Part shown: positions 35,682-64,000 of the stretch, piece after piece | How positions within the stretch are numbered: position 1 is the stretch's first letter | How the letters are laid out: the number at the start of each line of letters is the position of its first letter | NCBI GenBank assembly: GCA_965197395.1 | Contig: OZ240205.1 | Coordinates: 1,501,524 to 1,565,523, forward strand | Length of the DNA: 64,000 bases | Origin: Vicinamibacterales bacterium | Lineage (GTDB): Bacteria; Acidobacteriota; Vicinamibacteria; Vicinamibacterales; UBA8438 | Direction of reading: 5' to 3' | Program-made: the position numbers and the translations under genes | The notes under the pieces: model-generated | The model's input: the letters and a program-made list of their open reading frames with translations, nothing else | Told to the model about the DNA's origin: nothing | Databases searched by the model: none

Positions 35682-35734
35682 CGTAGCGCGGGGCTTTAGC
35701 CCCGCAAAAGGCAGGACTGAAGTCCTGCCCTACG
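35682..35734 (+). repeat. Composite REP-like palindrome (outer stem plus two hairpins), copy 1
   Basis: The sequence is 'cgtagc gcggggc-ttta-gccccgc aaaa ggcaggac-tgaa-gtcctgcc ctacg'. It is intergenic, between the PQQ gene and the upstream gene. Confidence 0.8.
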
Positions 35735-38064: not shown

Positions 38065-38131
38065 AACGACTCCTCCTCGCTCAGCATCCCAATCGGTTGT
38101 TGAACAGAACCGGTTCACGTTCGTGCTCACG

Positions 38132-39607: not shown

Positions 39608-39702
39608 CGACCATCCGTCGCGGGGCTGAAGCCCCGCGCTACGGGAGATCCTCGTCATCGACCATCCGTCGCGGGGCTGAAGCCCCGCGCTACGGGAGAT
39701 CC
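39601..39702. repeat. Perfect 51-bp tandem duplication (2 copies), each carrying a REP-like hairpin and an ATG
   Basis: 39601..39651 and 39652..39702 are identical: 'tcgtcatcgaccatccgtcgcggggctgaagccccgcgctacgggagatcc'. Confidence 0.95.
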
Positions 39703-39706
39703 TCGC

Positions 39707-41062
39707 CTACACCCCGCTCAACGGCTCGAGCGGCAAGCGCCCGGTGCTGTCACCCAGCTCCTCCGCAGGCACCCCCACTTTGTCGAGCATGCTCACGAGC
39801 AGGTTCGTCATCGGGGTTTCACCGTCGAACTTGACCTGCCGGCCCCCCTCGATCGAGCCGGCGCCGCCGCCCGCGAGGATGAGCGGTAGGTCCATGTGCG
39901 AATGCTGGTCACCGTCACTGATCCCGCCACCGTAGAGGATCATCGCCTGATCCAGCAGCGTCCCGTCGCCGTCAGGCGTCGCCTTGAGCTTCTCGAGGAA
40001 GCCGGCGAGGAGACTGACCTCGTAGGTGTTGATCAGCGCGTATTTCTCGAGCCTTTCGGCGTCCAACTGGTGATGCGACATCGCATGGTGCGGGTCGGGC
40101 ACGCCGATCTCCGGGAAGCTCTGCGACGTCTGTTCGCGGCCGATCAGGAACGTGAAGACGCGCGTGATGTCGGCCTGGAACGCAAGCGCCTGCAGCTCGA
40201 ACATCAGCTTCGCATGCTCGTCGAACGACTCGGGCACGCCGACCGGACGCTCGAGCACCTCGGGCAGCGCCGCATCGGTCTGCGCCTCGGAGCGCTGGAT
40301 CCGTCGCTCGATTTCCCGCACCGCGTCGAGATACTGCGTGACGCGCGAGCGGTCGCCGGCACCGAGCGTGCGCTCGAGCCGCGCCATGTCTTCGCGGACG
40401 GCGTCGAGGATGCTGCGGTCGTCCTGCAGCCGCGCGGCGCGTTGCTCCTCGGTGCCGCCTTCCCCGAAGAGCCGCTCGAAGACGACCCGCGGGTTGTGCT
40501 CCATGGGCAATGGCGTGGTCGGCGACCGCCAGGAGAACGTGTTCGTGTACACGCAGCTATAGCCGTTGTCGCAATTGCCGACGACGAAGCTGTTCTCCAG
40601 CGCGAGCTCCAGGGACGGCAACGGCGTGTCCTGACCGAGCTTGGCGGCCGCGAGCTGATCGACCGTCGTGCCCGCCCGCACGTCAGCGCCTTCGGTGCGC
40701 TTTGGATGGACGCCGTTGAGCCACACCGAGCTCGCGCGCGAGTGCTCCCCGTTGCCGTCGCCCCACGCCTCGGCCTGCCGGTGATCCAGGCCGCTCGGGA
40801 TCACGACCTGGTCGCGGACGTTGGCCAGCGGCTGCAGGATGCGCGAGAGCTCGAGCGCCCCGCTCGGGCCCTTCGGCGTCCACTGCGACATGTTGGCGCC
40901 GTTCGGGATGTAGATAAACCCGAGCCTCGGCACCGCCTTCGCCGCCGTCTTGGCCAGGGCGGACGCGGCTGGGACCATCGCGTCGAGCAGCGGTAACGCC
41001 AGCGTCGCGCCCATCCCGCGCAGGAAGGTACGTCGCGGCAGCGACCTCTTCGTGATGATCAT
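39707..41062 (-). CDS. DUF1552 domain-containing protein with twin-arginine signal (cassette copy A)
   Basis: The N-terminus is 'MIITKRSLPRRTFLRGMGATLALPLLDAM'. It is collinear with the paralogs at 61319..62668 and 47828..49168. It has an ATGA overlap with the upstream gene. The track ORF (to 42337) over-extends into a shadow frame. Confidence 0.85.
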   Translation of the reverse strand: MIITKRSLPRRTFLRGMGATLALPLLDAMVPAASALAKTAAKAVPRLGFIYIPNGANMSQWTPKGPSGALELSRILQPLANVRDQVVIPSGLDHRQAEAWGDGNGEHSRASSVWLNGVHPKRTEGADVRAGTTVDQLAAAKLGQDTPLPSLELALENSFVVGNCDNGYSCVYTNTFSWRSPTTPLPMEHNPRVVFERLFGEGGTEEQRAARLQDDRSILDAVREDMARLERTLGAGDRSRVTQYLDAVREIERRIQRSEAQTDAALPEVLERPVGVPESFDEHAKLMFELQALAFQADITRVFTFLIGREQTSQSFPEIGVPDPHHAMSHHQLDAERLEKYALINTYEVSLLAGFLEKLKATPDGDGTLLDQAMILYGGGISDGDQHSHMDLPLILAGGGAGSIEGGRQVKFDGETPMTNLLVSMLDKVGVPAEELGDSTGRLPLEPLSGV

Positions 41063-43449
41063 GACGGCGATCTCCTCATCCGAAACGGCACGCTGTCGAC
41101 GACGCCCAGGATGAGCGACGACAGACGGTAATCGTTCTCGGCCGCGTTGCGGACGATGGACCGGACCGCCGCGGCATCGTAATACTCGACCCCACGCCCC
41201 AGCGCGTAGGTCAGGAGCTTCTCGGTCACGGTGGTCACGAAGCGGTCGGGATGCCGCAGCAGCGCGGCTTTCAGCCCGGCCGGTCCGTCGTATTCGCTGC
41301 CGTCGGGCAGCACGCCCGAGGCGTCGATCGCGGCCTTCGTCTCGCTTCGGTCGCGCCAGCGCCCGACCGCGTCGAAGTTCTCCAGCGAGAGGCCTGGCGG
41401 ATCCATGAGCAGGTGGCAGCTGGCGCAGACGGGGTTGGCGCGATGCTGCTCCATCGCCTCCCGCATCGACAGCGGCGCCCCACCCTCGGCGGTCTCGAGG
41501 TCGGGCACATCGGGCGGCGGGGGCGGTGGCGGCGTGCCGAGGATGTTCTCGAGAATCCACTTTCCACGGAGCACGGGTGAGGTCCGGTTGGCATACGACG
41601 TGACCGTGAGAATGCTGCCGTGACCGAGCAACCCACCCCGGACATCGTCCTCCAGCGTGACGCGTCGGAAGTGGCTGCCGCGCACGTTCGGGATCCCGTA
41701 GTGCTGGGCCAACCGCTCGTTGACAAAGGTATAATCCGCGGCCAGCAGATCGAGCGTATTGCGGTCCTCGCGGAGCACGCTGGTGAAGAGGAGCTCGGTC
41801 TCCCGCCGGAACGCCTGCCGCAATCCCTCGCCGAAGTCGGGGAACGCGTCCTCGTCGGGCGTCACGGCGGCCGCGTTGCGTAGGGTCAGCCACTGGCCGG
41901 CGAAGTTCGTCACCAGCGCCTCCGACCGCGGATCGGCGAGCATCCGGCGCACCTGGCGCTCGAACTCTGTTGGGTCCGCGAGCACGCCGCGGGCCGCCAC
42001 GTCGAGCAGCTCGTCGTCCGGGATACTGCTCCAGAGAAAGAACGACAGCCGCGACGCGAGCTCCAGATCGCTGAGCCGATAGTTCGTTCCCGGGCCGACG
42101 CCGTCCGGATCGCGCTCGACCCGAAACAGGAACTCGGGGCTGACGAGCAGTCTGCGGAGCGCCATCTCGATGCCGGTTTCGAAGCTGCCCTGCGCACGGC
42201 CCCGCTCGTAGAACGTCAGCAGCCGCGCCACGTCGTCGCCAGTGACCGGTCGCCGATACGCCCGACGCCCGAGCCGGGAGAGGATCTGCCGGGCACAGGC
42301 GATTTCGTCGGCCGGCGCGGTACGGGCCGGGCGGCAAACGAACACGCGGGCGTAGCTCGGAGTCTCATCGATCGGACGCGCGCCGCTCGCCTCGTACGGA
42401 CCGGCGATCGTGACGCTCTCGACGTAGGGCTGATACCGCGAATCGCCGCCGGAGCCTTCTCCGGTGAACGGCCGCAGATACAGCTTGCGAATGCCCTCCG
42501 GCTCGGCCGAGGTCTTCCGCAGAAAGGCCACACCCACCTGGCGAGGCCCGGCCTTGATCGGGATGCGCACCTTCAGCGTGTCGATGGTGGGGACATACAA
42601 GCCGCGCGGATCGTCGGGGTCGGGCGCCTTGCCGACCGACAGCAACTCGACGCGCTCGCCGTCGACGGTCACCTCGAGCTGGTGTGGCTCGATGCGCAGT
42701 GGGCCGTCGGGCATGACCTCGATGACGTAGTCCGCGTCCTCGGGGAAGTTGTAGTCGACCAGCACGCCGCCGCGTGTCCCGAACGGCAGCCCTTCGAGAC
42801 GCTCGTCTTGCCCGAGATCCGAGGCGATGCGAAAGGTGTCCGCGGTCGGTGACGGCACCGGAGATGCGACCGCCAGGCGGCTGATCTTGCGCGCCGCCGA
42901 GAGGTAGCGCTCCATCAGCGTCGGCGAGACGCCGAGCACACCGGCGATGTTGTCGAATCCGTAGCTCGTATCGTCGGCCGGCAACAGCTGGTCGACGTCC
43001 GCGTCGAGCGCCAGCAGGTCGCGCACGGCGTTGCGGTACTCGGTGCGGCTCAGGCGGTGAAACGTCTCGGTGCGACCCGGATTGGGATTCGAGGCCGCCG
43101 CGCGATCGAGCTCACGCTCGAGCCGCGCGCGAAACCCGTCATAGGCCTCCTGGTCCGGACGCGGTCTGGGGCGCGGTGGCATCGCGCCGGCCCTCAGCTT
43201 CCGGACGACCTTCTCGAAGGCCTCGGGGTGCGCCGCGACATCGTCGACGTCGATCGCGTCGAAAGAGAACCCTCCGGTCCGGAGCCGGTCGTTGTGGCAG
43301 GTGGTGCAGTAGCGGTCGACGAGGGCGCGCTCCGCCGAGACGACGCCCGTAGCGGTCTCCTGCCCACCGCCGGTGGCAGATAGATCGATCGACCCTGCGC
43401 AGACCGCTGTCAAGACGGCGGCGACGGTGACAGACAGACCTCTCAGCAT
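41059..43449 (-). CDS. Exported multi-domain DUF1592/DUF1595/DUF1588/DUF1585-family protein with two CxxCH motifs (cassette copy A)
   Basis: It has a signal peptide. The N-terminus has 'YCTTCHNDRLRTGGFSFD' and the C-terminus has 'ANPVCASCHLLMDPPG'. 'RLSFFLWSSIPDDELL' and 'TSPVLRGKWILENILGTPPPPPP' are typical of this planctomycete-type family set. Confidence 0.8.
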   Translation of the reverse strand: MLRGLSVTVAAVLTAVCAGSIDLSATGGGQETATGVVSAERALVDRYCTTCHNDRLRTGGFSFDAIDVDDVAAHPEAFEKVVRKLRAGAMPPRPRPRPDQEAYDGFRARLERELDRAAASNPNPGRTETFHRLSRTEYRNAVRDLLALDADVDQLLPADDTSYGFDNIAGVLGVSPTLMERYLSAARKISRLAVASPVPSPTADTFRIASDLGQDERLEGLPFGTRGGVLVDYNFPEDADYVIEVMPDGPLRIEPHQLEVTVDGERVELLSVGKAPDPDDPRGLYVPTIDTLKVRIPIKAGPRQVGVAFLRKTSAEPEGIRKLYLRPFTGEGSGGDSRYQPYVESVTIAGPYEASGARPIDETPSYARVFVCRPARTAPADEIACARQILSRLGRRAYRRPVTGDDVARLLTFYERGRAQGSFETGIEMALRRLLVSPEFLFRVERDPDGVGPGTNYRLSDLELASRLSFFLWSSIPDDELLDVAARGVLADPTEFERQVRRMLADPRSEALVTNFAGQWLTLRNAAAVTPDEDAFPDFGEGLRQAFRRETELLFTSVLREDRNTLDLLAADYTFVNERLAQHYGIPNVRGSHFRRVTLEDDVRGGLLGHGSILTVTSYANRTSPVLRGKWILENILGTPPPPPPPDVPDLETAEGGAPLSMREAMEQHRANPVCASCHLLMDPPGLSLENFDAVGRWRDRSETKAAIDASGVLPDGSEYDGPAGLKAALLRHPDRFVTTVTEKLLTYALGRGVEYYDAAAVRSIVRNAAENDYRLSSLILGVVDSVPFRMRRSPS

Positions 43450-43771
43450 CGAGCTCCGGGGACCCCGCAGAACTTCCTCGTGGAACCTACAGAAACCGTT
43501 AAGCGTAAGAAACAGCCTAGTTTGTACGAACCGCGCGGGAGGTGTCAATCACTCAGTGCGCCATCGATTCCCGGTGCGGCCGCGCCCAATCAACCCCACG
43601 CCGGCTGGCCGCTGGCGCCGAGGCGGACGGGCCCCACACCCCGATTCGGATGATGCGAACTGGCCGCTCGGAGGGCTATGATGGGGCCGCAGCGCCCACG
43701 TGTGGATCCGTCGGACCCAGTGCGGCGTCACGTGTCGTCGGCCGGCCCATCAACCTGAAAGGACGGCAGTC

Positions 43772-46473: not shown

Positions 46474-47799
46474 TTACGGCTTCGCGATGTTCCAGTACAC
46501 GCCGGCGCCGCCGCCAGCGTTTCCGATGCGGGCCAACAGCGCGACTCGCTCGAGGTCCTCGGAGCGTCCCTCCGGGTCGGTGAACGCGTAGATCGCCTGC
46601 CCCCGGTTCTGACCGGGCACCGTGTCGCCCGCGTAGGTGTAGAGCGCGAACCCCTTATAGGCCCACTGGTTGGTGCCATCCCGCCGGGTGATGACTTCCC
46701 AGAAGCCGCTCGACCGCGCACCGTCAGGCGCGCTGAACGGACGCCAGGTCTCCAAGCAGTCGACATCTGCGCAGGCATCGCCGCCGAGTCGCTTCCCCCT
46801 GAAGTAGGCGACCTTGAAGCTGTCGCGCAGGTTTCGCCCGCCGAAATACTTCTCGAAGGCCGAGCCGATGTACAGGGTCATGCCGTTCAATGACAGGACA
46901 TCACCGTACCCCTCCAGCGCGGTGACGGCCACGTCGGGAGGGCTGAAGTGCGTCGTGAGCGCGGCCACCTCCCACCTGACATCGACCCCCGGCTTGCGAA
47001 CATCTCCGGGCAGCAGGTCGCCCCCGTGGCGATAGAGCGGACGCTCCTTGTACGCCCACTGCCTGAAGCCGTCCGCGCGGGTCATGACGGAAAAGTCGCC
47101 AACGTCGAGGGCGAGCGCGGAAGCCGCCACGGGCAGCCACTGACTCCCGCGTGGGGCGTCGCCGGCGAATGTGTAGAGGGGACGACCGGCGAAATCGGTC
47201 AACACGACCGCCCGCGCCGAGGCCACCAGCCCGACCTCGATGCCGGCCGGCCGCGGCATCGACGCCGCCGGATCGAACCGAGCGACCTCCCAGCCCTCGG
47301 GTGGCACCAGCGACCCCGCCTCCACCGGCCCCGCCGCGGTCTTCGAACTCGCCGTCTCGGCCAGACCGACGTTGGTGGCAACCTCTCCCGGCTCCTGCTC
47401 CTTCGACCAGGTGTACAGGGGACGCGACCGATACGCCCATTGCAGCTGTCCATCTGCCCGGCGCACCAACGACCAGTCGCCGAACGCGCTCGCGTCATCG
47501 TCCTGGGCTAGCAGTGGCGGGAATTCCGCGGCGCAGTCACCTGCGCAATTCGAGACGCCGGGCTGGTCGCCGTGGGAGAACAAGAGGGTCCAGCCCCCGG
47601 CGTCCCCGAGCCGCGTCCACAGCACCTGGTCCGACGAAATCGGCAAGTCCCTGACCACCTCCACCAGGGTCACACCTGGCGGCGTGGTCGACAGCACCAC
47701 CCATTCCTCCCCCGACGCAGACGACGGGGCCGCGACGACGACCGCCGTGATGACGAGCGAGAACCAGCCCGCCGATGCAGAGTGTCGCACACACATCAT
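46474..47799 (-). CDS. Exported repeat protein of the COG4315 / 'lipoprotein with Yx(FWY)xxD motif' type
   Basis: The repeated units are 'DGQLQWAYRSRPLYTWSKEQEPGEV', 'DGFRQWAYKERPLYRHGGDLLPGDV' and 'DGTNQWAYKGFALYTYAGDTVPGQNRG'. The start was trimmed to ATG 47799 (signal 'MMCVRHSASAGWFSLVITAVVVAAPSSASG'). Confidence 0.7.
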   Translation of the reverse strand: MMCVRHSASAGWFSLVITAVVVAAPSSASGEEWVVLSTTPPGVTLVEVVRDLPISSDQVLWTRLGDAGGWTLLFSHGDQPGVSNCAGDCAAEFPPLLAQDDDASAFGDWSLVRRADGQLQWAYRSRPLYTWSKEQEPGEVATNVGLAETASSKTAAGPVEAGSLVPPEGWEVARFDPAASMPRPAGIEVGLVASARAVVLTDFAGRPLYTFAGDAPRGSQWLPVAASALALDVGDFSVMTRADGFRQWAYKERPLYRHGGDLLPGDVRKPGVDVRWEVAALTTHFSPPDVAVTALEGYGDVLSLNGMTLYIGSAFEKYFGGRNLRDSFKVAYFRGKRLGGDACADVDCLETWRPFSAPDGARSSGFWEVITRRDGTNQWAYKGFALYTYAGDTVPGQNRGQAIYAFTDPEGRSEDLERVALLARIGNAGGGAGVYWNIAKP

Positions 47800-47827
47800 C
47801 GGACCTCGCAAAGCCTTCCGCGCGCGC

Positions 47828-49168
47828 TCACGCCAGGAGCTCGGTGAAGGGCCTCGACACCTGATTCGACTCGGTGCCCCAGCTTCCACGACCGACACCC
47901 AAAGCCTGCTGCACCGTGAACCCCACACGCGTCGCCGCGTCACCTTCCGCGGCGATATGGTAGCCCGTCTTCATCCGGCCACCGCCGCTGCCGGCGGTGA
48001 GAATCGGCAGGCGTTTCATCGAGTGCATTCTCGCCTCGCCGTGGTCGGTAAACGCAAAGATCACGCTTCGATCGAGCAGCGTGCCGTCGCCTTCGCGGAT
48101 CGCGTCCAACGCCTGCACGAGCTCCACGAAGAAACCCATGCATCGCTCCGCGATCCACTTGCACTTGACCTGATACCCGAGCTGCGTATCGACCGGTTCT
48201 TCGTGCGTCAGCGCATGATAGCCATTCGGCTCTCCCGGCGCGCGGAGCCTGGAGAGCGACGCACCCAGGGTGAGGTTGAAGACCCGCGTCTGACCGCAGG
48301 CCAAGGCATGCGCCATCAATTGCGCGAATTGCCGGTGCGTTTTTTCCACCTGGGGGAGGAGCGGACCGATGTCGTCGGTCGCGGCGCCGGGCATCGTACA
48401 CGCCGGCAGCGGTTCAGGTTTCTCCAGCTCGAACGCGAGCTTCTGCTCGAGATCGCGAACGGACGAAAAATACTCGTCCAACCGCGCACGATCCGACGCC
48501 GACACGGCGCCCATGAGATCCTTCCGCTGGTCCGCCACCGCCGACAGCACGCTCTGGCGCACCATCGTCCCCGGGTCGGGCACGAAGTCTGCCCCACTCG
48601 GATCGCGGAAACCGTCCCCGAAGATGCGGGTGTAGAGGGCAAGCGGTGATGTCGCGGAAGGGTTCATACCACTCGATCCGCGCGCGCTCCAGCCGGCCCG
48701 GCTGTCGCCGCCGCTGGTGGCCTCGAGAGAACGGAACCGCGTGCCCTTGCCGATCTGTTCGCCAATGATGGTGTCGATGCTCGCCGTGTAGTTGCTGGCG
48801 TTCCGCGACACCCTGCCGGTCGCCTGGCCTTGCGCGCCCGAGAAGTGGTTCTGGTTGATCTTGCCGTCGAGGAAGACCTGCATCCCGCTGAAGAGGTTCA
48901 TCTTCGGCTTGATCGCTTGCAAGCCGGCAATGTGTTCCGGCAGCTCGTAGTCGACGCCGGTGGTCGCGGGCTCCCAGCGGCCGGGAGCCAGGCCGAGTCC
49001 CCAGAACCAGGTGCCGAAACAGGGCTGTAGCCGCGCGCCGGTTGCCGCGTAGGCGGTGCCGTTGGTGTTCAGGAAACACTCCAGTATCGGTAGCCCGACG
49101 GCAACCGCCGTTCCGCCCAGGAAACCCCGCAGTACGGTGCGGCGGTCAACCTTCTTGATGTCACTCAT
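47828..49168 (-). CDS. DUF1552 domain-containing protein with Tat-like signal (divergent third copy)
   Basis: The N-terminus is 'MSDIKKVDRRTVLRGFLGGTAVAVGLPILE'. It is collinear with the other two DUF1552 proteins ('FTDHGEARMHS...LPILTAGSGGG' versus 'GGGISDGDQHSHMDLPLILAGGGAG'). Confidence 0.8.
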   Translation of the reverse strand: MSDIKKVDRRTVLRGFLGGTAVAVGLPILECFLNTNGTAYAATGARLQPCFGTWFWGLGLAPGRWEPATTGVDYELPEHIAGLQAIKPKMNLFSGMQVFLDGKINQNHFSGAQGQATGRVSRNASNYTASIDTIIGEQIGKGTRFRSLEATSGGDSRAGWSARGSSGMNPSATSPLALYTRIFGDGFRDPSGADFVPDPGTMVRQSVLSAVADQRKDLMGAVSASDRARLDEYFSSVRDLEQKLAFELEKPEPLPACTMPGAATDDIGPLLPQVEKTHRQFAQLMAHALACGQTRVFNLTLGASLSRLRAPGEPNGYHALTHEEPVDTQLGYQVKCKWIAERCMGFFVELVQALDAIREGDGTLLDRSVIFAFTDHGEARMHSMKRLPILTAGSGGGRMKTGYHIAAEGDAATRVGFTVQQALGVGRGSWGTESNQVSRPFTELLA

Positions 49169-49200
49169 CTTGATCTCCCCATGCCCTCAACACTTCAACC

Positions 49201-50814
49201 TCAGCCACCCGCATGTGTGTAGAAATCCACGTTCTGGGCGATGCGCCGCATGAGATCGCGCCAGGTGACGACGGTATCGACAAGCGCCGACGCCGTGTCG
49301 GCGAGCCACGTCCGTTCCCGGTCGGAGGGAGTCCTTGCCGTGCCGTAGGAGAACGCCCGGTTGACCAGACAGGATGTGGCGGCGGGGTCATCTCGGAGGA
49401 TCGTCGCAAACTCGGTGACTCCGGCGTACGGCCGGCGACGGAAGGTGCCGCTGGTGTCAATCAGTGCGCCGTTCTCGGTCGTCCGGTAGACACCGGACGC
49501 ATCAAAGACCTCGAGGGTCAGTCCGATCGGGTCGGTCACGCGGTGACACCCGGCACACGTCGGATTCGTCCGGTGCGCGGTCAGCCGCTGCCGCACGGTC
49601 CTGAAGGCCGGATCGGTCGTGTCCTGGACGATGCTGAAATCCACGTCCCCCGGCGGCGGCGGCACTCGCTGGCACAAGAGGTTTTCACGGACCGCCTTGC
49701 CCCGGAGTGTGGGAGATGTCGTGCCGGGATGCGAGTGCAAGGCCAGAAAGCTCACCTGCGTGAGGAGCCCCACGTGCGGGTCACCCTCGGGAAACCGATA
49801 GGGCACCCAGGGAACCGCGCCGCCCAGCTCCTGCGATCGGGGCAGCGGGACGCCGTAGATCGCCGCGAGTGACGGCGTCAGGAAGGTGTCACGCGTGACG
49901 AACAGATCCCGATAGTCGCCGTCCTTGGTGATCAGGTGATCGGCGATCGTGCGTAAGGTCTGCTCCCGCGCATCGTCCTGGACGTTCTTCGTGAACTTCG
50001 GGAAGAGACTCGGATCCACAGACAACGTCGCGAACCCGTCGAACCCCAGCATGTCAGAGAAGAAGGCTCGCAGACCGTCTTCGATGCGTGGCGACGAGAG
50101 CAGACGCTCGATCTGGCGATGCAGCCCCTCGGTCGAGAGCAACGCTCCGGACTGCGCCGCGGCCAACAGCTCGGTGTCCGGGGTGCTGTTCCACAGGAAG
50201 AAGCTGAGACGGGACGCCCGCGAGTACGCATCCAATCGCAGCGTGCCCGGCCGGGACGGATCCCGCTCGGCGTGCTCGGCGCGAAAGAGGAATTCCGGCG
50301 CGACGAGCATCCCCACCAGGGCGGCCTGCAATCCGGCATAGAAATCATCGAGCGTGCGCGCCGCCGATTCGGCGATGGCGACATACGACCGGACCTCGTC
50401 GTCGGTCGGGGGACGTCGGAACAGGAAGAGTCCCACCCGGGTGACGAACTGCGTGGCGCACTCCCGATCCGGCGCGGTGTTGGTGTCCGGCATGCACGGA
50501 ATGAGCGTCGCGCGGTGCCTGGGGTCGGTGACCTGGGCGGCGACTTGTTGGGCGAGCGCCTCATAGCGCTCCAGCGCCGCGGCGCTCAAGGCCAGCTTCC
50601 TGGCGCCGAGCGCCAACAGGCCATTTTCTCGAACCCCAGGATCGACGACGCCGTCGTCGACCTGGATGCCCTCGCCGAAGATGTCGTGGATGGTGCGCTC
50701 GTACTGCGCCGGCGTCAGCCGAACGAAGCTGATCTCTTCGGCGGCGATCAGCGGCACTGCACTGGCAACGATCAGACTCACGGCCAGCGCTGGCGCATGA
50801 GCCTTCCACCGCAT
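49201..50814 (-). CDS. Exported DUF1595/DUF1592/DUF1588/DUF1585-family protein, short form lacking the N-terminal CxxCH module
   Basis: It has 'RLSFFLWNSTPDTELL', 'TSPTLRGKAVRENLLCQRVPPPPGDV' and 'TNPTCAGCHRVTDPIG'. The start was trimmed to ATG 50814 ('MRWKAHAPALAVSLIVASAVPLIAAEE'). Confidence 0.75.
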   Translation of the reverse strand: MRWKAHAPALAVSLIVASAVPLIAAEEISFVRLTPAQYERTIHDIFGEGIQVDDGVVDPGVRENGLLALGARKLALSAAALERYEALAQQVAAQVTDPRHRATLIPCMPDTNTAPDRECATQFVTRVGLFLFRRPPTDDEVRSYVAIAESAARTLDDFYAGLQAALVGMLVAPEFLFRAEHAERDPSRPGTLRLDAYSRASRLSFFLWNSTPDTELLAAAQSGALLSTEGLHRQIERLLSSPRIEDGLRAFFSDMLGFDGFATLSVDPSLFPKFTKNVQDDAREQTLRTIADHLITKDGDYRDLFVTRDTFLTPSLAAIYGVPLPRSQELGGAVPWVPYRFPEGDPHVGLLTQVSFLALHSHPGTTSPTLRGKAVRENLLCQRVPPPPGDVDFSIVQDTTDPAFRTVRQRLTAHRTNPTCAGCHRVTDPIGLTLEVFDASGVYRTTENGALIDTSGTFRRRPYAGVTEFATILRDDPAATSCLVNRAFSYGTARTPSDRERTWLADTASALVDTVVTWRDLMRRIAQNVDFYTHAGG

Positions 50815-50894
50815 GCCAACCCTCCCCTCGGCGGCGTCCCGATCGTCGGGGTCGCGGCGTCCGGCTCGTGTCTCCACCAGGGTGAACATACCCC

Positions 50895-52115
50895 TCATCG
50901 TGCCGGTGATCGGTTGGCCGCCGGACCGTTGAACTTCGGGCCGTTTCCGACCGCGCGACCGACAACCTGCCCAGACATCGTGGTGTGGAACGCCGGGATC
51001 GCTTCCAACCAGTAGGCGGCCGAAATCGCGGTGTTCTCCCCCGTCGCCGGGTCGGGCACGCCGTCGGCAAGGCGCTTCATGGCGTAGTACGCCCCGGGCA
51101 GGTCGACTTGTCCGCTGCCCTCTCCGCGAATCGCCAAGAAGTGGTAGTAGTTCCTCCACGGTTGGTATCCACCGATGATTCCCCGCACGCTACCGTCCGG
51201 ATCCATCGTGAGGCGCACGTGAGTCTTGGCGAACCGGAGCACCGCATGGAACTGCGACTCTCCCTGCAGCGAAAAGTCCCCGGGCTCGATGCTCAGGACT
51301 CGGTCCCTGATCGTACCCTTGAATACACTGTGTGATCGTGGATCGGGGTCGATCACGAAGGTCGCTCCGGACAGCACGCCGCCGTGGGTGTCTCTCAGCA
51401 GGATGTTCAACGACCGGTCGAATGTCACCGTGACGTCTCCATCCCGGTCGAGGTCCGCCCCCGACACCGACATCAACCAGGCGGGCATCGAATCGATGGC
51501 GTTGTCCCAGACGATGCTCTCGTTGTACGGCACCACCGGACGGCGGACGTTGTAGACCTCAAAGCAGCCGAGCGCTCGCCACATCTGGTTGTCGACACCC
51601 TGCTCGTGGGACTCCGGATCCTCGAATGCATCGGGGCCAATCCGACCATCGAGGTTGAAGCCGTACGCAAACCGCCCCTGTGCGGTTCGAATATTCGGGT
51701 CGGGTACCAAGGCGGGAACGTTGCCCGGATTGACCGCGAACCCGTTCCACCCGTCGTCTCCCGCCCCGGCGCCGGCCCCGAAGAGCGCCGCGCCGTCGAC
51801 GCGGTTACCAGCCTCGTCCCGGCCGCCGTTGGCAATGATCGTCAGGGCTTCTTCCTCGCTGAAGCCGGCGCTGACCAGTCGCCGCGTTCGGAGCTCGAGC
51901 AGCCCCCCGTTGCCGCCCGCGGGACAGGTGTCCGTATTCGCGTAGGTCGCCGTGTGAAACATCGAGATCACGTAGCCGCGCGTTTCGCCGAACGCGCTCG
52001 ACGGGGTGCACAGCGCGATGAAAAGGGGCAGACAGACGCCGGTGATTCCCGCCCACACCAGGTGTCGAAGACGTGCTCCGCCAGCAGTCATGGACCCTCC
52101 ATCGGCAGACTTCAC
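50895..52115 (-). CDS. Exported hypothetical protein (no recognisable family)
   Basis: It has a signal-like 'LVWAGITGVCLPLFIALCTPSSAFGE', balanced composition and the same strand as the DUF1592-like gene, directly upstream of it. An alternative start is ATG 52091. Confidence 0.6.
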   Translation of the reverse strand: MKSADGGSMTAGGARLRHLVWAGITGVCLPLFIALCTPSSAFGETRGYVISMFHTATYANTDTCPAGGNGGLLELRTRRLVSAGFSEEEALTIIANGGRDEAGNRVDGAALFGAGAGAGDDGWNGFAVNPGNVPALVPDPNIRTAQGRFAYGFNLDGRIGPDAFEDPESHEQGVDNQMWRALGCFEVYNVRRPVVPYNESIVWDNAIDSMPAWLMSVSGADLDRDGDVTVTFDRSLNILLRDTHGGVLSGATFVIDPDPRSHSVFKGTIRDRVLSIEPGDFSLQGESQFHAVLRFAKTHVRLTMDPDGSVRGIIGGYQPWRNYYHFLAIRGEGSGQVDLPGAYYAMKRLADGVPDPATGENTAISAAYWLEAIPAFHTTMSGQVVGRAVGNGPKFNGPAANRSPAR

Positions 52116-57392: not shown

Positions 57393-57443
57393 GATGCAAC
57401 GCACGTGAGCCCCCGGGGCTCAAGGCCTGGGAGGGACGGTCGC

Positions 57444-58994
57444 ATGAAGTTGACACGCCGGGCGGCGCTCGGCCTCATCGGGGCCGGCGCGGCCACGCCA
57501 TTCCTCGCGTCCTGCGGCATCGACGAGCCGACCGCCGGCGCGCCGTCAGATGTCGCACCGATGCAGAGCGAGTCGTTCCACTACATGAGCTTGCGCGACG
57601 TCGCACGCCTGATCGAAGCGCGCGAGCTCTCGCCGGTTACGCTGACCGAGACGATGCTCGATCGGATCGCCGCGGTCGACGGACGGCTCAAGAGCTACGC
57701 GACCGTCATGGCCGACGACGCGCTGGCCGCGGCGCGTGTCGCGGAGTCGGAGATCCAGGGCGGGCGCTACCGCGGCCCGCTGCACGGTGTCCCGATCGCC
57801 GTCAAAGACCTCTGCTACACCCGAGGCGTGCGCACCATGGGCGCGCTCGCCGTCCTGGCCGACTTCGTCCCCGAGTACGACGCGACGGTGGTCGCCAGGC
57901 TCGCCGATGCCGGCGCCGTCCTCCTCGGCAAGCTCAATCTGACAGAAGGCGCGATGGCCGGCTACCACCCGGACTTCGACATCCCCGTCAATCCCTGGGA
58001 CGCGGGTCTGTGGACCGGCGTCTCGTCGAGTGGCTCCGGCGTGGCCACGGCGGCCGGCCTCTGCTTCGGCTCGCTCGGCTCGGACACCGGCGGATCGATC
58101 CGGTTTCCATCGGCTCAGTGCGGCCTTGTCGGCCTGAAACCGACGTGGGGCCGCGTCAGCCGCTACGGCGTGCTCGAGCTCGCGGGATCGCTCGACCACA
58201 TCGGACCGATGACGCGGAGCGTCGCCGATGCCGCGATCATGCTCGAGGCGATTGCCGGCGTCGACGCGAACGACGCGACGACGCTCGACGCACCGGTGCC
58301 CCCGCTGCTCGCAACGCTCGATGGCAACGTGGCCGGGATGCGGCTTGGGTTCGATAGGCGGTACGCCTCGGAAGGCGTCGACCCCGAGGTGGCCGCAGCC
58401 GTGGAAACGGCCCTCGCCGTGCTGACCGGGCTGGGTGCCGAGGTCGTCGATGTCGAGATGCCCGAGGCGCCCTTCGCCGACTGGGGCACCATCTGTTCGT
58501 ATGAGGCCGCCCGGGCACACGCGGCGACCTACCCCAGCCGCGCGGACGAGTACGGTCTGTACTTTGGACAGTTCCTGGAGAACGGTGTGCAGGTCAGCGA
58601 CGAGGTGTACGCCGAGGCGAACGGACGACGCGCAGTGTTCACCGAGCGGTTCGAGGCGATGCTATCGACCGTCGACGCGCTCGTCTGCCCGTCCAACGTC
58701 ACGGCGATCCCGGTCATCGACGGCATGGGCTACGACACCATCGCGGCCTTCGGCCAGGCGCTGGCCTCGATCGCGGAGCGGTTCGATCCGCCGCTTGGCA
58801 GCATCCAGCTCTTCACGGCGCCGGCCGACTTCGCCGGTACGCCGACGATCTCCCTGCCGTGTGGTTTCTCGGCGGCGGGTGCGCCCCACAGCCTCCAGCT
58901 GGTCGGCCGCGACCTGAGCGAGCCGACGCTCTGCCGGCTCGCTCACGCCTACGAGCAGGCCACGGACTGGCACACGCGGCATCCGGACGTCTGA
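57444..58994 (+). CDS. Amidase (amidase-signature family), exported lipoprotein-like
   Basis: The N-terminus is 'MKLTRRAALGLIGAGAATPFLASCG'. The AS signature is 'GVSSSGSGVATAAGLCFGSLGSDTGGSIRFPS'. An RBS 'gggagggacgg' precedes ATG 57444. Confidence 0.85.
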   Translation: MKLTRRAALGLIGAGAATPFLASCGIDEPTAGAPSDVAPMQSESFHYMSLRDVARLIEARELSPVTLTETMLDRIAAVDGRLKSYATVMADDALAAARVAESEIQGGRYRGPLHGVPIAVKDLCYTRGVRTMGALAVLADFVPEYDATVVARLADAGAVLLGKLNLTEGAMAGYHPDFDIPVNPWDAGLWTGVSSSGSGVATAAGLCFGSLGSDTGGSIRFPSAQCGLVGLKPTWGRVSRYGVLELAGSLDHIGPMTRSVADAAIMLEAIAGVDANDATTLDAPVPPLLATLDGNVAGMRLGFDRRYASEGVDPEVAAAVETALAVLTGLGAEVVDVEMPEAPFADWGTICSYEAARAHAATYPSRADEYGLYFGQFLENGVQVSDEVYAEANGRRAVFTERFEAMLSTVDALVCPSNVTAIPVIDGMGYDTIAAFGQALASIAERFDPPLGSIQLFTAPADFAGTPTISLPCGFSAAGAPHSLQLVGRDLSEPTLCRLAHAYEQATDWHTRHPDV

Positions 58995-59072: not shown

Positions 59073-59471
59073 TCAGGCGAGTGTCTTCGCGAGTGCTGCG
59101 TCGACGATTCTGCGGTCCTGGGTCAAGAGCGTCGCGCCGAGGACACGGGCGGTGGCTACCAGGATCCGGTCGGCCGGGTCGCGGTGAAACGCGTCGGGTA
59201 GGGTCGCCACGTCCGCCGCGATCGCCGGTGAAATGCCCTGCCGCTGCACCAGCGGTGGCGCCACAGCCTTACCCAACCATTCCCGCAAGGGGATCGTGAG
59301 GCGGATGCGCCCAAGACTGTGCAGCATCGCCACCTCCCAGAGCGAGATATCTGAGACGAGGAGTGGGGCAGTGGCGTCCGCTCGATCGACCGCCTGCCGC
59401 TGATCGGTTGAGAGTCGGTCCGGTTCGCCGAGCCACCAGATGAGGATGTGAGTGTCGAGCAGCAGGCTCAT
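59073..59471 (-). CDS. vapC: Type II toxin VapC (PIN domain)
   Basis: The N-terminus 'MSLLLDTHILIWWLGEPDRLS' and 'PADRILVATARVLGATLLTQD' are present. There is a 4-nt overlap with the upstream antitoxin. Confidence 0.85.
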   Translation of the reverse strand: MSLLLDTHILIWWLGEPDRLSTDQRQAVDRADATAPLLVSDISLWEVAMLHSLGRIRLTIPLREWLGKAVAPPLVQRQGISPAIAADVATLPDAFHRDPADRILVATARVLGATLLTQDRRIVDAALAKTLA

Positions 59472-59704
59472 CGAAGGGTCTCCCAGTCTTCCTCCGGCAC
59501 GACGGGATCGACGATGTTGCCTACCACGGTGACGCTTCCGCGCAGGCCCGACTGCGGGAACCGACCCTCCGTCTGACTTGCTGGTAGCAACTCCGCTACG
59601 GGCTGGCCGCGTTTCAGGATGACAACGCGCTCACCGGTTGCCTGGACGCGATCGAGAATCGCTAGACATCGCGCTTTGAAGTCGGACGCGTTTATCCTCT
59701 CCAT
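59468..59704 (-). CDS. Type II antitoxin, Phd/YefM family
   Basis: 'INASDFKARCLAILDRVQATGERVVILKRGQPVAELLP' is the typical Phd/YefM N-terminus. Confidence 0.8.
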   Translation of the reverse strand: MERINASDFKARCLAILDRVQATGERVVILKRGQPVAELLPASQTEGRFPQSGLRGSVTVVGNIVDPVVPEEDWETLR

Positions 59705-59729
59705 ATGACTAGTCTATACGACCAGTCAT
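59705..59729. promoter_or_regulatory. 10-5-10 palindrome abutting the antitoxin start codon (candidate TA operator/promoter)
   Basis: 'atgactagtc tatac gaccagtcat' has arms complementary at 9 of 10 positions. On the coding strand it carries a TATAGA hexamer 8 nt before the ATG. Confidence 0.5.
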
Positions 59730-59866
59730 TTAGGAACCCGCGATCTGGTGGCAGAAAAGGGCGTGTCGCGCGGCTACCGTGCTCTGCTGGTTCTCTGCAA
59801 CTGCGGCGTGGAGACTCGTGGCGGCGGGGCGGGAGACGGGTTCTGGGTGCGGCGAACGCCCGAGGC

Positions 59867-61318
59867 TCAGCGGTCGACGGTGTCGTCGGACCAGTCTGAG
59901 ATGGTGTTGTCGGGGCCGGAGACGAGCGTCGCGTCGGCGCCCAGCTCGAGCAGCAGGGTCTCCATCTCGGGCCAGCGCTTGCCGGTGTTCGAGTAAAAGA
60001 CGCCCTTCGCGATGCGGAGAGGCGTCCAGCCCTTTTCGTTCACAGCGTCGATGTCGGCGCCGCGGTCGAGGAGAAAGCGCACGAGCGGCTCGGAGCCGCG
60101 AATGACGGCGCCGTGCAGCGCGCTGTCGCCGTTGTCATCGACAGCGGTCACGTCGCCACCGAGCTCCAGCGCGTATCGGATGGCATCGAGCGCCTCCGCG
60201 TTCGTGCCGGGGCTCTCTCCCACCGCCCAGATGCCGACACCGGCCGCGACCATGAGCGGCGTGGTGCCGTCCTCGTTCGGCAAGAGCGGGTCCGCACCGA
60301 GCTCGACCAGCAGACGCATCATCTCGACGTCGGCCGCCTTGGCCGCCAGCAGGAACGGCGTCGAGCCGATGCGATTCAAGACGTTGCGGTAGCGGTTGTT
60401 CGGCTCCTTCGTCTGGCGGGCGTCGAGATCGGCGCCGTGCGCGGCCAGTGTTCGGATGAACTCGAGGCCGCTCATCCTGCCGGTTATGATCGGCGGCGGG
60501 TTGTTGAACCCGAGGTTGGGTCGGCGGGTCCACTTCACCTCGTGGAGCGCCGTCCATCCCTGGTCATCAGCGTTCGGGTCGGCGCCCGCCTCGAGCAACA
60601 TCGCGCCGAGATCGTAGTGGGCGTTCTTGGCGGCGAGCACGAGCGCGCTGGTCCCATCCAGCAGTGTTTCCTCGGGGCTGGCGCCGGCATCGAGCAGCAC
60701 GCGCGCCATCTCGTCATAGCCCGCGCGGACGGCGAACATGAGTGGTGAGAAGCCGCCGCTGGAGCGCGCGTGGACGTCGGCGCCGCGGTGGAGCAGCGCC
60801 TCGACTGCGCCGAGGTTGTTCTCCGCCACCGCCCACATCAGCGCGGTTTGGCCGCGCCAGCCCTCGCGGGCGTTCGCGTCGGCGCCGTGGTCCAGCAACA
60901 GGCGCACGGCTTCGACCACACCGGTACGTGCCGCAGTCATCAGCGCGGTCTCGCCTTCCGGTCCCGTCGAGTTCGGGTCCGCCCCGGCCTCGAGCAGCGC
61001 CTCGATGACCGCCGTGCCACCGCTCTCACACGCGAGCGCCAGCGGCGTGACCCCGAGTCGATTGGCCGCATCGACGGTTGCGTCCGCGCGAAGCAACAGA
61101 GTGGTCGTCTCGAGATCGCCGTGATGCGCGGCCCAGTGGAGGGCCGTCGTGCCGTCGGCGTCGCCGCTGTTGACGTCGACGCGCTCGGCGATCAGCGCCG
61201 AGACACGTGTGGCGTCGCCGTTCCGCACCGCGTCGATCAAGGGGATATCGCGTTCGGCAGCCCCGAGGCATAGGACCGCAAGCGCGGCGACGAATAACGA
61301 GCGTCTCGAGCCGCTCAC
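59867..61318 (-). CDS. Secreted ankyrin-repeat protein (cassette copy C)
   Basis: The N-terminus is 'MSGSRRSLFVAALAVLCLGAAE'. It is collinear with, and roughly 60% identical by eye to, the 38132..39607 protein, including the non-ANK insert 'WTALHEVKWTRRPNLGFNNPPP'. The GTG start directly follows the DUF1552 stop. Confidence 0.85.
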   Translation of the reverse strand: MSGSRRSLFVAALAVLCLGAAERDIPLIDAVRNGDATRVSALIAERVDVNSGDADGTTALHWAAHHGDLETTTLLLRADATVDAANRLGVTPLALACESGGTAVIEALLEAGADPNSTGPEGETALMTAARTGVVEAVRLLLDHGADANAREGWRGQTALMWAVAENNLGAVEALLHRGADVHARSSGGFSPLMFAVRAGYDEMARVLLDAGASPEETLLDGTSALVLAAKNAHYDLGAMLLEAGADPNADDQGWTALHEVKWTRRPNLGFNNPPPIITGRMSGLEFIRTLAAHGADLDARQTKEPNNRYRNVLNRIGSTPFLLAAKAADVEMMRLLVELGADPLLPNEDGTTPLMVAAGVGIWAVGESPGTNAEALDAIRYALELGGDVTAVDDNGDSALHGAVIRGSEPLVRFLLDRGADIDAVNEKGWTPLRIAKGVFYSNTGKRWPEMETLLLELGADATLVSGPDNTISDWSDDTVDR

Positions 61319-62668
61319 TTACACATCCGTCAATGCGGTCAGCCTGCCGGTGCTGTCACCGAACTGGTCCCCCGGCAGACCCGCTTTGTCGAGCATGCTG
61401 ATGAGCAGGTTCGTCATCGGCGTGTCCTTCGGGTACCGCAGATGTCGCCCACCGCGCCATCCGGTCCCCTTGCCGCCGACGACCGCCACGGGAAGGTCGT
61501 AGTGCAAGTGGTCGTTGCTGTCACCGAGCCCACCCGCGTACAGCACGAGCGAGCGGTCGAGCAGCGTCCCGTCGCCGTCGGGCGTCGTCTGGAGCTGATG
61601 GAGGAAGTGGGTGAACAGCTCGACGTGGTGCGTGTTGATCTTCGTCAGCTTCGCGAGCTTCTCCGGGTCGTTGCGGTGATGCGACAGCCCGTGGTGCGGG
61701 TCGGGCACGCCGATCTGCGGGTAGGGCCTACCGCCCAGCTCGCGGCCGACCATGAACGTGAAGACCCGCGTGAGGTCGGCCTGAAACGCCAGCGCCAGCA
61801 GGTCGTACATCAGCGTGACGTGCTCCTCGTACGAGTCGGGAATTCCTGCGGGACGCGCCAGGTTCTCCGGCAGCGCCGAATCGGCGCCCTGTGCCTCGGA
61901 CAGCTGGATGCGCTGCTCGATGGCACGCACCGCATCGAGATACTGATCCACACGCCGGCGATCGGCCGCGCCGAGATCTCGTTCCAGATGTGCCAGGTCG
62001 TCCGTGACCGAATCGAGGATGCTGCGGTCCTTGCGCATCTCAGCGAGTCGTTGCTCGCGCGTCCCGCCGTCGCCAAAGAGGCGCTCGAACACCACCCGCG
62101 GGTTGTTCTCGTTCGGCAACGGTGTCGTCGGTGTCCGCCACGAGACCGTGTTCATGTAGGCGCAGCTGTAGCCGTTCTCGCAGTTGCCGACGAGAAAGTC
62201 GAGGTCGATCGCCAGCTCGAGCGAGGGGAGCGGCGTGTCCGCGCCAAGGTGCGCGGCCGCGAGCTGGTCCGCGGTGACGCCGGCCTGTACGTCCGCGCCC
62301 TCCGTGTGTTTCGGGTGCACCCCGTTCAGCCAGACCGCCGTAGCGCGCGAGTGCTCGCCGTTCCCGTCGCCAAGCGGTTCGGCCTGCCCGTGCGCGAGCC
62401 GCGTCAACACCACCGTCTGATCCTTGTAGGGCGCGAGCGGGCTCAGCGTCGGCGAGAGCTCGAGGGGCCCTTCGCTCTTCGGCGTCCACGACTGCATCAC
62501 CGCGCCGTTCGGCAGGTAGATGAAACCGAGGCGCTTGACCGGCTTGGCCGCCGTCGCCGCCAGCGCAGTCAACGCGGGCACCATCGCGTCGAGCAGCGGC
62601 AACGCCACCGTCGCGCCCACGCCGCGCAGGAAGGTACGGCGCGGTAGCGAGAGTTTCTTGATCATCAT
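61319..62668 (-). CDS. DUF1552 domain-containing protein with twin-arginine signal (cassette copy C)
   Basis: The N-terminus is 'MMIKKLSLPRRTFLRGVGATVALPLLDAM'. It is a close paralog of 39707..41062 and has an ATGA overlap with the upstream gene. Confidence 0.85.
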   Translation of the reverse strand: MMIKKLSLPRRTFLRGVGATVALPLLDAMVPALTALAATAAKPVKRLGFIYLPNGAVMQSWTPKSEGPLELSPTLSPLAPYKDQTVVLTRLAHGQAEPLGDGNGEHSRATAVWLNGVHPKHTEGADVQAGVTADQLAAAHLGADTPLPSLELAIDLDFLVGNCENGYSCAYMNTVSWRTPTTPLPNENNPRVVFERLFGDGGTREQRLAEMRKDRSILDSVTDDLAHLERDLGAADRRRVDQYLDAVRAIEQRIQLSEAQGADSALPENLARPAGIPDSYEEHVTLMYDLLALAFQADLTRVFTFMVGRELGGRPYPQIGVPDPHHGLSHHRNDPEKLAKLTKINTHHVELFTHFLHQLQTTPDGDGTLLDRSLVLYAGGLGDSNDHLHYDLPVAVVGGKGTGWRGGRHLRYPKDTPMTNLLISMLDKAGLPGDQFGDSTGRLTALTDV

Positions 62669-64000
62669 GATGGCGATCTCCGCATCTGGAAGGGTGCGCT
62701 CCGGACGATGCCCAGGATGAGCGATGAAAATCGGTGGTCGGCCTGACCGGCCTCGCGCGTGATGGCGCGGATCGCCGGTGCGTCGAAGTGCTCCACGCCC
62801 CGACCGAGCGCATACGTCATCAGCTTCTCGGTCAGGGTCGTCACAAAGAGGTGCGGCCGCTGCATGAGCGCGGCCCGCAGTCCGGCGGCGCCCTCGAACG
62901 CGGTGCCGTCGGGTAGCGCGCCCGAGGCGTCTATGGCCGCGTTGGCCTCGTTACGGGTCCGGTACCGACCCACCGCGTCGAACTGCTCGAGCGCGAAGCC
63001 GGGCGGATCCATCAACTTGTGGCAGCTCGCGCAGACCGGATTGGCGCGATGCTGCTCCATCGCCTCACGCATCGACAGCGCGCGGCCGTCGTTGGTCTCC
63101 TCCAACGCCGGGACGTCGGGTGGCGGCAGCGGCGGCGGTGTTCCGAGCAGGTTTTCGAGCACCCACTTCCCGCGCAGCACCGGCGACGTTCGCGTCGGAT
63201 ACGCCGTCGCCGACAGGATGCTCCCGTGCCCGAGCAATCCTCGCCGGGCGTCGTCGTCGAGCGTCACGCGGCGGAAATGGCTCCCGTAGACGTTCGGCAT
63301 CCCGTAGTGCCTGGCCAGCCGCTCGTTGACAAAGGTGTAGTCGGCCGTCAGCAGCTCCAGAACGCTGCGATCCTCGCGCATGACGCTCGTGACGAACAGT
63401 TCGGTCTCGTGCCGCATCGCGCGCCGTAGCGCTTCACCGAAATCGGGAAACAGGTTCTCGTCCGGCGCGAGCGCGGGCACGTTGCGCAGATACAACCATT
63501 GGCCGGCGAAGTTCTCGACCAGCGCCGCGGCGCGGTCGTCCGCCAGCATGCGGCGCACCTCGGCCTCGAGCACCGCGGGTTCGTGAAGCCGCCCGGCCAC
63601 CGCCACATCGAGCAGCGCGTCGTCGGGGATGCTGGACCAGAGGAAGAAGGACAGGCGCGATGCGAGCTCGAGGTCGCTCAACCGGTAGTTGGTGCCCGGC
63701 TCCACGCCCGCGGGGTCGCGCACGACACGGAAGAGAAACTCCGGGCTGGCGAGCAGCCGCCTGAGCGCCAGTTCGATCCCCGCCTCGAAGCCGCCGTCGT
63801 TCCGGCCGGCGTCGTAGAAGCCAAGCAGGACGTCGAGGTCGCGCGACGTGATCGGCCGCCGATACGCGCGCCGGGCCAGCGTCGACAGGATGTCTCGCAC
63901 GCACGACAGCTCTGCTTCGCCATCGGCGCTCAGCGGCCGGCAGGTGAAGATGCGCTCTCGGCTCGGCGTTGCCTCGACGGGCGGTGCCCCACTTGCCTCG
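62665..64000 (-). CDS. DUF1592-family CxxCH protein (cassette copy C), partial; N-terminus beyond the right edge
   Basis: It has 'RLSFFLWSSIPDDALL', 'TSPVLRGKWVLENLLGTPPPLPPPDV' and 'ANPVCASCHKLMDPPG'. It is about 75% identical by eye to copy A. The frame stays open upstream of the track's Met at 63900, to the window end. Confidence 0.85.
   Translation of the reverse strand, partial: EASGAPPVEATPSRERIFTCRPLSADGEAELSCVRDILSTLARRAYRRPITSRDLDVLLGFYDAGRNDGGFEAGIELALRRLLASPEFLFRVVRDPAGVEPGTNYRLSDLELASRLSFFLWSSIPDDALLDVAVAGRLHEPAVLEAEVRRMLADDRAAALVENFAGQWLYLRNVPALAPDENLFPDFGEALRRAMRHETELFVTSVMREDRSVLELLTADYTFVNERLARHYGMPNVYGSHFRRVTLDDDARRGLLGHGSILSATAYPTRTSPVLRGKWVLENLLGTPPPLPPPDVPALEETNDGRALSMREAMEQHRANPVCASCHKLMDPPGFALEQFDAVGRYRTRNEANAAIDASGALPDGTAFEGAAGLRAALMQRPHLFVTTLTEKLMTYALGRGVEHFDAPAIRAITREAGQADHRFSSLILGIVRSAPFQMRRSPS

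Follow-up and report, generated by a model that had tools for sequence, protein, structure and literature searches.

Two diverged copies of the same three-gene cassette stand on one contig of a Vicinamibacterales bacterium (Acidobacteriota; GenBank assembly GCA_965197395.1, contig OZ240205.1, positions 1,501,524 to 1,565,523), which raises the question of whether the three genes form a unit of inheritance and function, and of how both copies came to be in one genome. Each cassette encodes a DUF1592-family protein, a DUF1552 protein and an ankyrin-repeat protein. We analyzed the whole 64,000-nucleotide (nt) stretch, here called the window, in which copy B reaches the 3' end and copy A lies further upstream in the numbering. 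Most probably, the two copies are ancient tandem paralogues of an operon of three genes, self-contained and typical of Vicinamibacterales, for which we propose a role as a periplasmic complex.

Copy B had been described in an earlier reading of the letters alone (the sequence-only reading) as three intact and collinear genes, and three contiguous minus-strand open reading frames (ORFs) indeed occupy positions 59867..64000. The DUF1592-family gene (62665..>64000) stays open to the end of the window, which holds its 3' 1.3 kb with 444 codons visible, while its 5' part lies beyond. The full gene encodes 812 amino acids (aa) on a metagenome contig (L001:1081-3519) that is 99.9% identical to the window and whose independent gene calls match the copy-B coordinates read here. 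The DUF1552 (HXXSHH) gene (61319..62668, 449 aa) and the ankyrin-repeat gene, ankB (59867..61318, 483 aa, GTG start), follow. Both junctions could be read directly and are as claimed: an ATGA at 62665-62668, in which the DUF1552 ATG overlaps the DUF1592-family TGA, and a TAA|GTG at 61316-61321, where the ankyrin start abuts the DUF1552 stop with zero spacer. A promoter and terminator scan 3' of ankB found no element, and an Rfam search, which covered the window and two related loci, found no RNA element either.

Copy A, which we located by tblastn, has the same gene order, the same ATGA overlap and, according to Pfam, the same domain content, in agreement with the earlier description. Its genes also lie on the minus strand. 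The ORF of the DUF1592-family gene (41059..43548) has 829 aa and two CxxCH motifs, with the true start likely at the methionine at residue 34, about position 43449; the DUF1552 gene (39707..41062) encodes 451 aa and overlaps its upstream neighbor by the ATGA. The ankyrin gene (38132..39658, from the ORF and Pfam) likely starts near 39600, 3' of a spacer with units that resemble repetitive extragenic palindromic (REP) elements. This REP-containing spacer had been noted before, and we found in it two tandem 51-nt units (39618..39690, strand not assigned), each carrying the perfect palindrome GCGCGGGGCTTCAGCCCCGCG. The palindrome is matched five times in the window, where chance would give 0.02 matches; a further copy lies at 35686..35706, between a pyrroloquinoline quinone (PQQ)-dependent dehydrogenase gene and a 768-aa gene, both of which are described below.

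Codon-aware pairwise alignment of the two copies gave 59.7% aa and 66.5% nt identity for the ankyrin protein, 65.4% and 71.4% for DUF1552, and 70.3% and 71.2% for the DUF1592-family protein. The estimate of about 60% for the ankyrin protein was therefore accurate, but the value of about 75% given for the other two proteins was too high, and the 75% nt identity reported near the 3' end of the DUF1592-family gene holds locally, with the lower whole-gene value given above. The ratio of nonsynonymous to synonymous substitution rates (dN/dS), which had been proposed as a check on the three paralog pairs, is 0.38 for the ankyrin gene, 0.34-0.40 for DUF1552 and 0.21-0.23 for the DUF1592-family gene; these ratios are approximate because dS is 0.7-1.05, which is close to saturation in a genome rich in GC at third codon positions (GC3). 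All three are clearly below 1, and both copies are under purifying selection.

To place the copies in a wider context, we compared gene order across related loci. A scan limited to one genome per species yielded 286 relatives of DUF1552, and the best 80, those closest to copy B, were kept. Nearly all of these come from Vicinamibacterales metagenome-assembled genomes (MAGs) and share 66-99% identity with copy B, its orthologues lying at 80-99%; several genomes contribute two loci each. A metagenome scan with the copy-A DUF1552 recovered A-type loci at 86-90% identity. For the copy-B ankyrin protein, dozens of database clusters lie at 70-90% identity, and those that carry a name are assigned to Acidobacteria; copy A reaches 60%. 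Linkage was counted from 178 DUF1552 genes in 162 fetched sources. All 154 testable loci have a DUF1592-family gene directly upstream of DUF1552, and 146 of 157 have an ankyrin gene on the downstream side. The ATGA overlap is kept in 94 of 126 triads, and the spacer between DUF1552 and the ankyrin gene varies, with a median of about 50 nt and a maximum of several hundred. A search for a conserved fourth gene found no other flanking family in more than 31 of 124 triad loci, which marks the triad itself as the conserved module.

The three genes also share a common history. Among 97 complete triads, the pairwise distance matrices of the three genes correlate with r = 0.93-0.94, and the three neighbor-joining trees have seven identical bipartitions on the path between A and B, separating 10, 17, 26, 38, 68, 94, and 95 taxa. 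When each gene was classified by its nearer reference, 71 triads were B for all three genes, 18 were A for all three, and the 8 mixed triads are deep outgroups equidistant from A and B. The phylogeny that had been suggested as a check for co-duplication thus yields A|B splits common to all three gene trees, which indicates that the triad was duplicated and inherited as a unit. Each copy has closer orthologues in other genomes, so the duplication predates much of the diversification of Vicinamibacterales, and the divergence of A and B is not an event within the genome of this lineage. Together with the dN/dS values and the gene order, the correlated distances and shared splits bear out the earlier claim of selection on the triad as a unit. 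We conclude from these comparisons that the whole triad was duplicated once, well before the sampled Vicinamibacterales separated, and that both copies were then inherited vertically as units under purifying selection.

The arrangement of the two copies points in the same direction. A B triad, a cyclase gene on the opposite strand and an A triad follow one another on one contig, in the same orientation as in the window, in six other loci, and many further loci show half of this arrangement. A-type genes also follow B triads in five loci from named Vicinamibacteraceae or Vicinamibacterales MAGs. The triad is conserved in this way, often with B in tandem with A, across Vicinamibacterales from soil and marine Acidobacteria. 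The ancestral layout accordingly consists of a B triad, an opposite-strand cyclase, an A triad and a 768-aa gene, an order that the window keeps, and by this comparison of loci its copies A and B are what is left of a conserved tandem array. Between the triads, the spacer gene that the related loci have in common encodes a putative cyclase (PF04199; 43700..44851, plus strand) and may have a divergent promoter region in common with the A triad. The 768-aa gene (35824..38130, minus strand) has a weak CarboxypepD_reg match and starts 1 nt past the stop of the copy-A ankyrin gene (ankA). It stands behind the ankyrin gene in A-clade loci only (about 12 loci, with 74-85% identity in most), which makes copy A a four-gene unit and copy B not; this fourth gene had gone unnoticed in the sequence-only reading. 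A sequence search of Protein Data Bank (PDB) chains gave nothing usable for the 768-aa protein. About 14 kb separate ankB from the cyclase in this genome and hold a Phd/PIN pair, an amidase, a tripartite ATP-independent periplasmic (TRAP) transporter, a thiolase-like gene and a further DUF1592/DUF1552 cassette; these are unrelated genes inserted between copies B and A. Other triads occur as well: directly upstream of the B triad, five loci have a more distant type, whose DUF1552 and ankyrin proteins share about 52% and about 42% identity with those of B, and another B-like clade (L068-L079) is found elsewhere in the same Vicinamibacterales genomes, so that these genomes contain three to four or more triads each.

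The domain composition of the three proteins suggests where they act. The part of the copy-B DUF1592-family protein within the window matches PSD4 (168 bits), PSCyt3 (123), PSD2 (85), and PSD5 (73) in Pfam; in the full-length protein on L001, PSD3 is also present and the cytochrome c matches are weak or faint. The domain order is PSCyt1-PSD3-PSD5-PSD4-PSCyt3-PSD2 over roughly 800 aa. Copy B has a CVTCH haem motif at residue 50, in the N-terminal cytochrome c domain, and a CASCH at residue 691, and exactly two CxxCH motifs are found in the DUF1592-family protein of all 97 complete triads. Both window copies have an N-terminal signal peptide for Sec-type export. The signal peptide and the two haem motifs characterize these proteins as putative exported di-haem c-type cytochromes with large extra domains. 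A sequence search of PDB chains gave nothing usable here either.

DUF1552 is the member for which a catalytic role can be proposed. Copy B matches PF07586 with 339 bits (cut-off 30) over profile positions 1-306 of 307, and carries a twin-arginine translocation (Tat) signal, PRRTFLRG, as well as the sequence HGLSHH, which reads HAMSHH in copy A. The Tat motif and HxxSHH are present in DUF1552 of all 97 complete triads. Across 127 diverse members, down to 36% identity, at least 95% conservation is seen for H106, D134, S149, S216, D236, E251, H326, H330, and H387, together with the Tat arginine and a few Gly, Pro, Leu, and Ala positions; H326 and H330 reach at least 98%. An AlphaFold2 model built from 107 sequences has a predicted local distance difference test (pLDDT) score of 74 and a predicted template modelling (TM) score of 0.77, and all of its top 50 Foldseek matches in the PDB belong to the alkaline-phosphatase superfamily, namely sulfatases, LtaS, YejM, phosphonate monoester hydrolases, and alkaline phosphatase (best E-value 4.5e-5, TM 0.35-0.41). 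DUF1552 has neither a Pfam sulfatase match nor a PDB sequence match, and we rejected a canonical sulfatase identity on account of the missing C/SxPxR signature.

The copy-B ankyrin protein matches Ank_2 in Pfam with 221 bits and contains 11 GxTPL-type motifs. In its AlphaFold2 model (pLDDT 89.8), the signal peptide is followed by 12-13 repeats that stack into one continuous solenoid, and the global Foldseek comparison ranks first the D34 region of ankyrin-R, which has 12 repeats (1n11, TM 0.74/0.88). The C-terminal half contains many invariant residues outside the ankyrin consensus. Matches to the NCBIfam models MzaA and Legionella Ank fell far below the cut-offs and were treated as generic repeat similarity; none of the three triad proteins is covered by a curated NCBIfam model. 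Between the A and B clades, each protein has 16-31 clade-specific fixed differences. All 16 of the ankyrin protein fall into its C-terminal half, and those of DUF1552 cluster beside the invariant H387 and at residues 94-99 and 155-164.

On this basis, we propose that the three products would assemble as a periplasmic complex, which is the simplest reading of three export signals encoded by one closely packed operon. DUF1552 would be its metal-dependent catalytic subunit: the Tat export and the invariant set of His, Asp, and Glu residues suggest a subunit that folds and loads its metal before export. The di-haem cytochrome could pass electrons to or from DUF1552, bind the substrate or dock DUF1552 to it, and the conserved ATGA overlap suggests translational coupling and a fixed stoichiometry of these two proteins. 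By analogy with AnkB and the catalase KatB, the ankyrin protein could serve as a scaffold or maturation factor. Copies A and B probably act on different substrates. Their long co-retention, the fixed differences near H387 of DUF1552 and the restriction of the 768-aa gene to A fit non-redundant roles, and sub-functionalization appears plausible from these sequence features. In its most specific form, which we put forward tentatively and as a possibility that is rather less than even, the triad would represent an uncharacterized type of periplasmic redox enzyme, in which a His-cluster DUF1552 of alkaline-phosphatase fold works with a di-haem cytochrome, both held or matured by the ankyrin protein of 12-13 repeats, with distinct substrates for A and B.

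How the pair of cassettes arose could also be explained in other ways. One cassette might be a xenologue, acquired whole by horizontal transfer and not by duplication in the lineage, and it is true that the closest A-clade relatives are largely marine or deep-water metagenome contigs without assigned taxonomy, and that a third cassette in the window, copy C, has relatives at 64-69% identity in Gammaproteobacteria, so that cassettes of this family seem to move between phyla. Against transfer of A or B stand the recurrence of the tandem in the same orientation in at least six other loci, the A-type genes that follow B triads in named Vicinamibacteraceae and Vicinamibacterales MAGs, and a GC3 of 0.86-0.90 in both copies, equal to that of the neighboring genes, by which A and B look native; we therefore regard this origin as unlikely. 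A recent duplication with rapid divergence, leaving one redundant copy to decay, would account for the equal domains of A and B and for the REP-like insertions in the copy-A spacer. It is already contradicted by the orthologues of each copy elsewhere, which are closer than the paralogue in the same genome, and decay is hard to reconcile with two full-length copies that lack stops, retain all motifs and show dN/dS values of 0.2-0.4, so we consider it very improbable. Gene conversion between A and B was likewise rejected: sliding-window identity is uniform (0.59-0.81) and identical stretches reach at most 26 nt, which excludes recent conversion.

An ancient duplication of the whole triad leaves the part played by the ankyrin protein to be weighed. 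It might be a mere conserved neighbor, such as an effector that is secreted or a periplasmic protein with a role of its own, and no partner of the other two products. The variable spacer in front of its gene fits such a role, as do distant DUF1552 relatives whose third genes encode Lipoprotein_15, cytochrome c'-like or unknown proteins, and the resemblance to Legionella Ank effectors, which is sub-threshold only, would suit an effector. Yet the gene is present in nearly all testable loci, shares the seven splits with the trees of the other two genes, encodes invariant residues outside the repeat consensus in its C-terminal half, and abuts the DUF1552 stop in copy B, and we thus judge an unconnected neighbor to be improbable, if a little less so than the transfer of a cassette. 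Several points nevertheless weigh against the proposed periplasmic complex and the history given for it. The interaction of the three products is deduced from gene linkage alone, and He et al. (2017; PMC5615132), the only paper found to treat the DUF1592/DUF1552 gene pair, state that the function of the pair is not known. The trees are neighbor-joining trees without bootstrap values, and the count of genomes with both A and B is non-exhaustive, as the genome scan kept the 80 loci closest to B. The DUF1552 model is of moderate confidence and its structural matches are remote, and the sulfatase C/SxPxR signature is absent from DUF1552 outside the Tat signal. Finally, some relatives have another third gene or none, so the ankyrin protein is not universal in the wider family.

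Further features of the window lie beside the two triads. The third, distant DUF1592/DUF1552 pair (47828..51159), which the sequence-only reading did not include, is part of the copy-C cassette (46474..52115, minus strand), which consists of a 406-aa gene, a DUF1592-family gene, a DUF1552 gene and a gene for a Lipoprotein_15 repeat protein. Copy C has the same core pair as copy B, in the same orientation and the same window, but the two are only 26-34% identical and differ in their accessory genes, and the copy-C DUF1592-family protein lacks the N-terminal cytochrome domain and contains one CxxCH motif instead of two. The closest relatives of copy C belong to Gammaproteobacteria. The same four-gene order is found in Gammaproteobacteria and Steroidobacteraceae genomes (three loci), and their DUF1552 identities, given above, suggest transfer between phyla. 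In a few other DUF1552 relatives, the third position is taken by a small cytochrome c'-like gene, by unknown genes or by a transposase. Directly downstream of ankB lies a PhdYeFM antitoxin/PIN toxin pair (59073..59740, minus strand), which among the relatives only the two closest, L001 and L002, possess as well and which therefore represents a recent insertion next to the copy-B cassette. The amidase gene (57405..58994) is intact in the window (529 aa) and appears as two calls in L001 (7190..8348), where the split is probably a sequencing frameshift of that low-coverage (3x) contig. Just downstream of the copy-A unit is a gene for a PQQ-dependent dehydrogenase (PF01011, 294 bits; 33553..35649, minus strand), a linkage that is not conserved in most loci. 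PQQ-dependent dehydrogenases are periplasmic redox enzymes that normally need a cytochrome c partner.

A second copy is in itself unsurprising, since these genomes commonly carry paralogous operons of the family, and we regard the finding as solid but fairly ordinary. Its value is that of an entry point into a large orphan family: the DUF1592-family/DUF1552 pair belongs to the large orphan gene pairs found in environmental bacteria, and DUF1552 alone comprises 18,438 clusters at 50% identity (E <= 1e-3). The locus offers a compact target for expression, pull-down and structural work, in which three genes occur as two natural variants with defined invariant residues. If the redox-complex proposal is correct, one solved complex would annotate a large block of dark matter in Acidobacteria and in the Planctomycetes-Verrucomicrobia-Chlamydiae group.

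Three known systems provide a basis for comparison. The predicted core fold of DUF1552 resembles that of the alkaline-phosphatase superfamily, and a conserved DUF1552 His after a late beta-strand would fall at the place of the D-H metal ligands of these enzymes, as judged from the inferred placement in the model. However, DUF1552 lacks an obvious Ser/Thr nucleophile motif, and P-N-G takes the place of the acidic pair after strand 1. We therefore treat DUF1552 as a possible remote relative in fold, and not as a member, of this superfamily, with a metal site that is probably different and His-based.

For the ankyrin protein, the nearest precedents are periplasmic ankyrin partners that bind and promote haem enzymes, such as AnkB for KatB in Pseudomonas, AnkB for CatB in Xanthomonas, and Cj1386 for KatA in Campylobacter, as summarized in PMC10294975, which cites Howell 2000, Flint 2015, and Pan 2018. 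In AnkB-KatB and Cj1386-KatA, one operon encodes an exported haem protein together with an ankyrin protein that has a signal peptide, as it does in the triad, and the role proposed for the ankyrin protein of those systems is to stabilize or mature the haem enzyme. Unlike the triad ankyrin protein, with its 12-13 repeats and its c-type cytochrome and DUF1552 partners, AnkB-type proteins are small, have few repeats and serve catalases, and no catalase is found in or beside the copy-B cassette. The likeness is one of analogy, and the feature shared in sequence is the repeat type.

The closest counterpart is the core pair itself, whose domains were defined in Rhodopirellula. In Planctomycetes and Verrucomicrobia, a PSCyt3/DUF1592 gene has the same domain architecture and is followed immediately downstream by DUF1552 (PF07631/PF07627/PF07586; PMC5615132); haem motifs and a Tat signal are also present there, and the Pfam scores of the triad lie far above the cut-offs. 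A search of the literature on DUF1552, DUF1592, DUF1585/7/8, DUF1595, and DUF1501/1549/1553 found no functional study, and the literature searched yielded no description of an ankyrin partner for the DUF1592/DUF1552 pair. Compared with this known pair, the cassettes of Acidobacteriota are distinguished by a third, co-evolving ankyrin partner, which is fixed in Vicinamibacteria, and by an ancient tandem double cassette, to which our analysis adds the predicted, remote alkaline-phosphatase-like fold of DUF1552.

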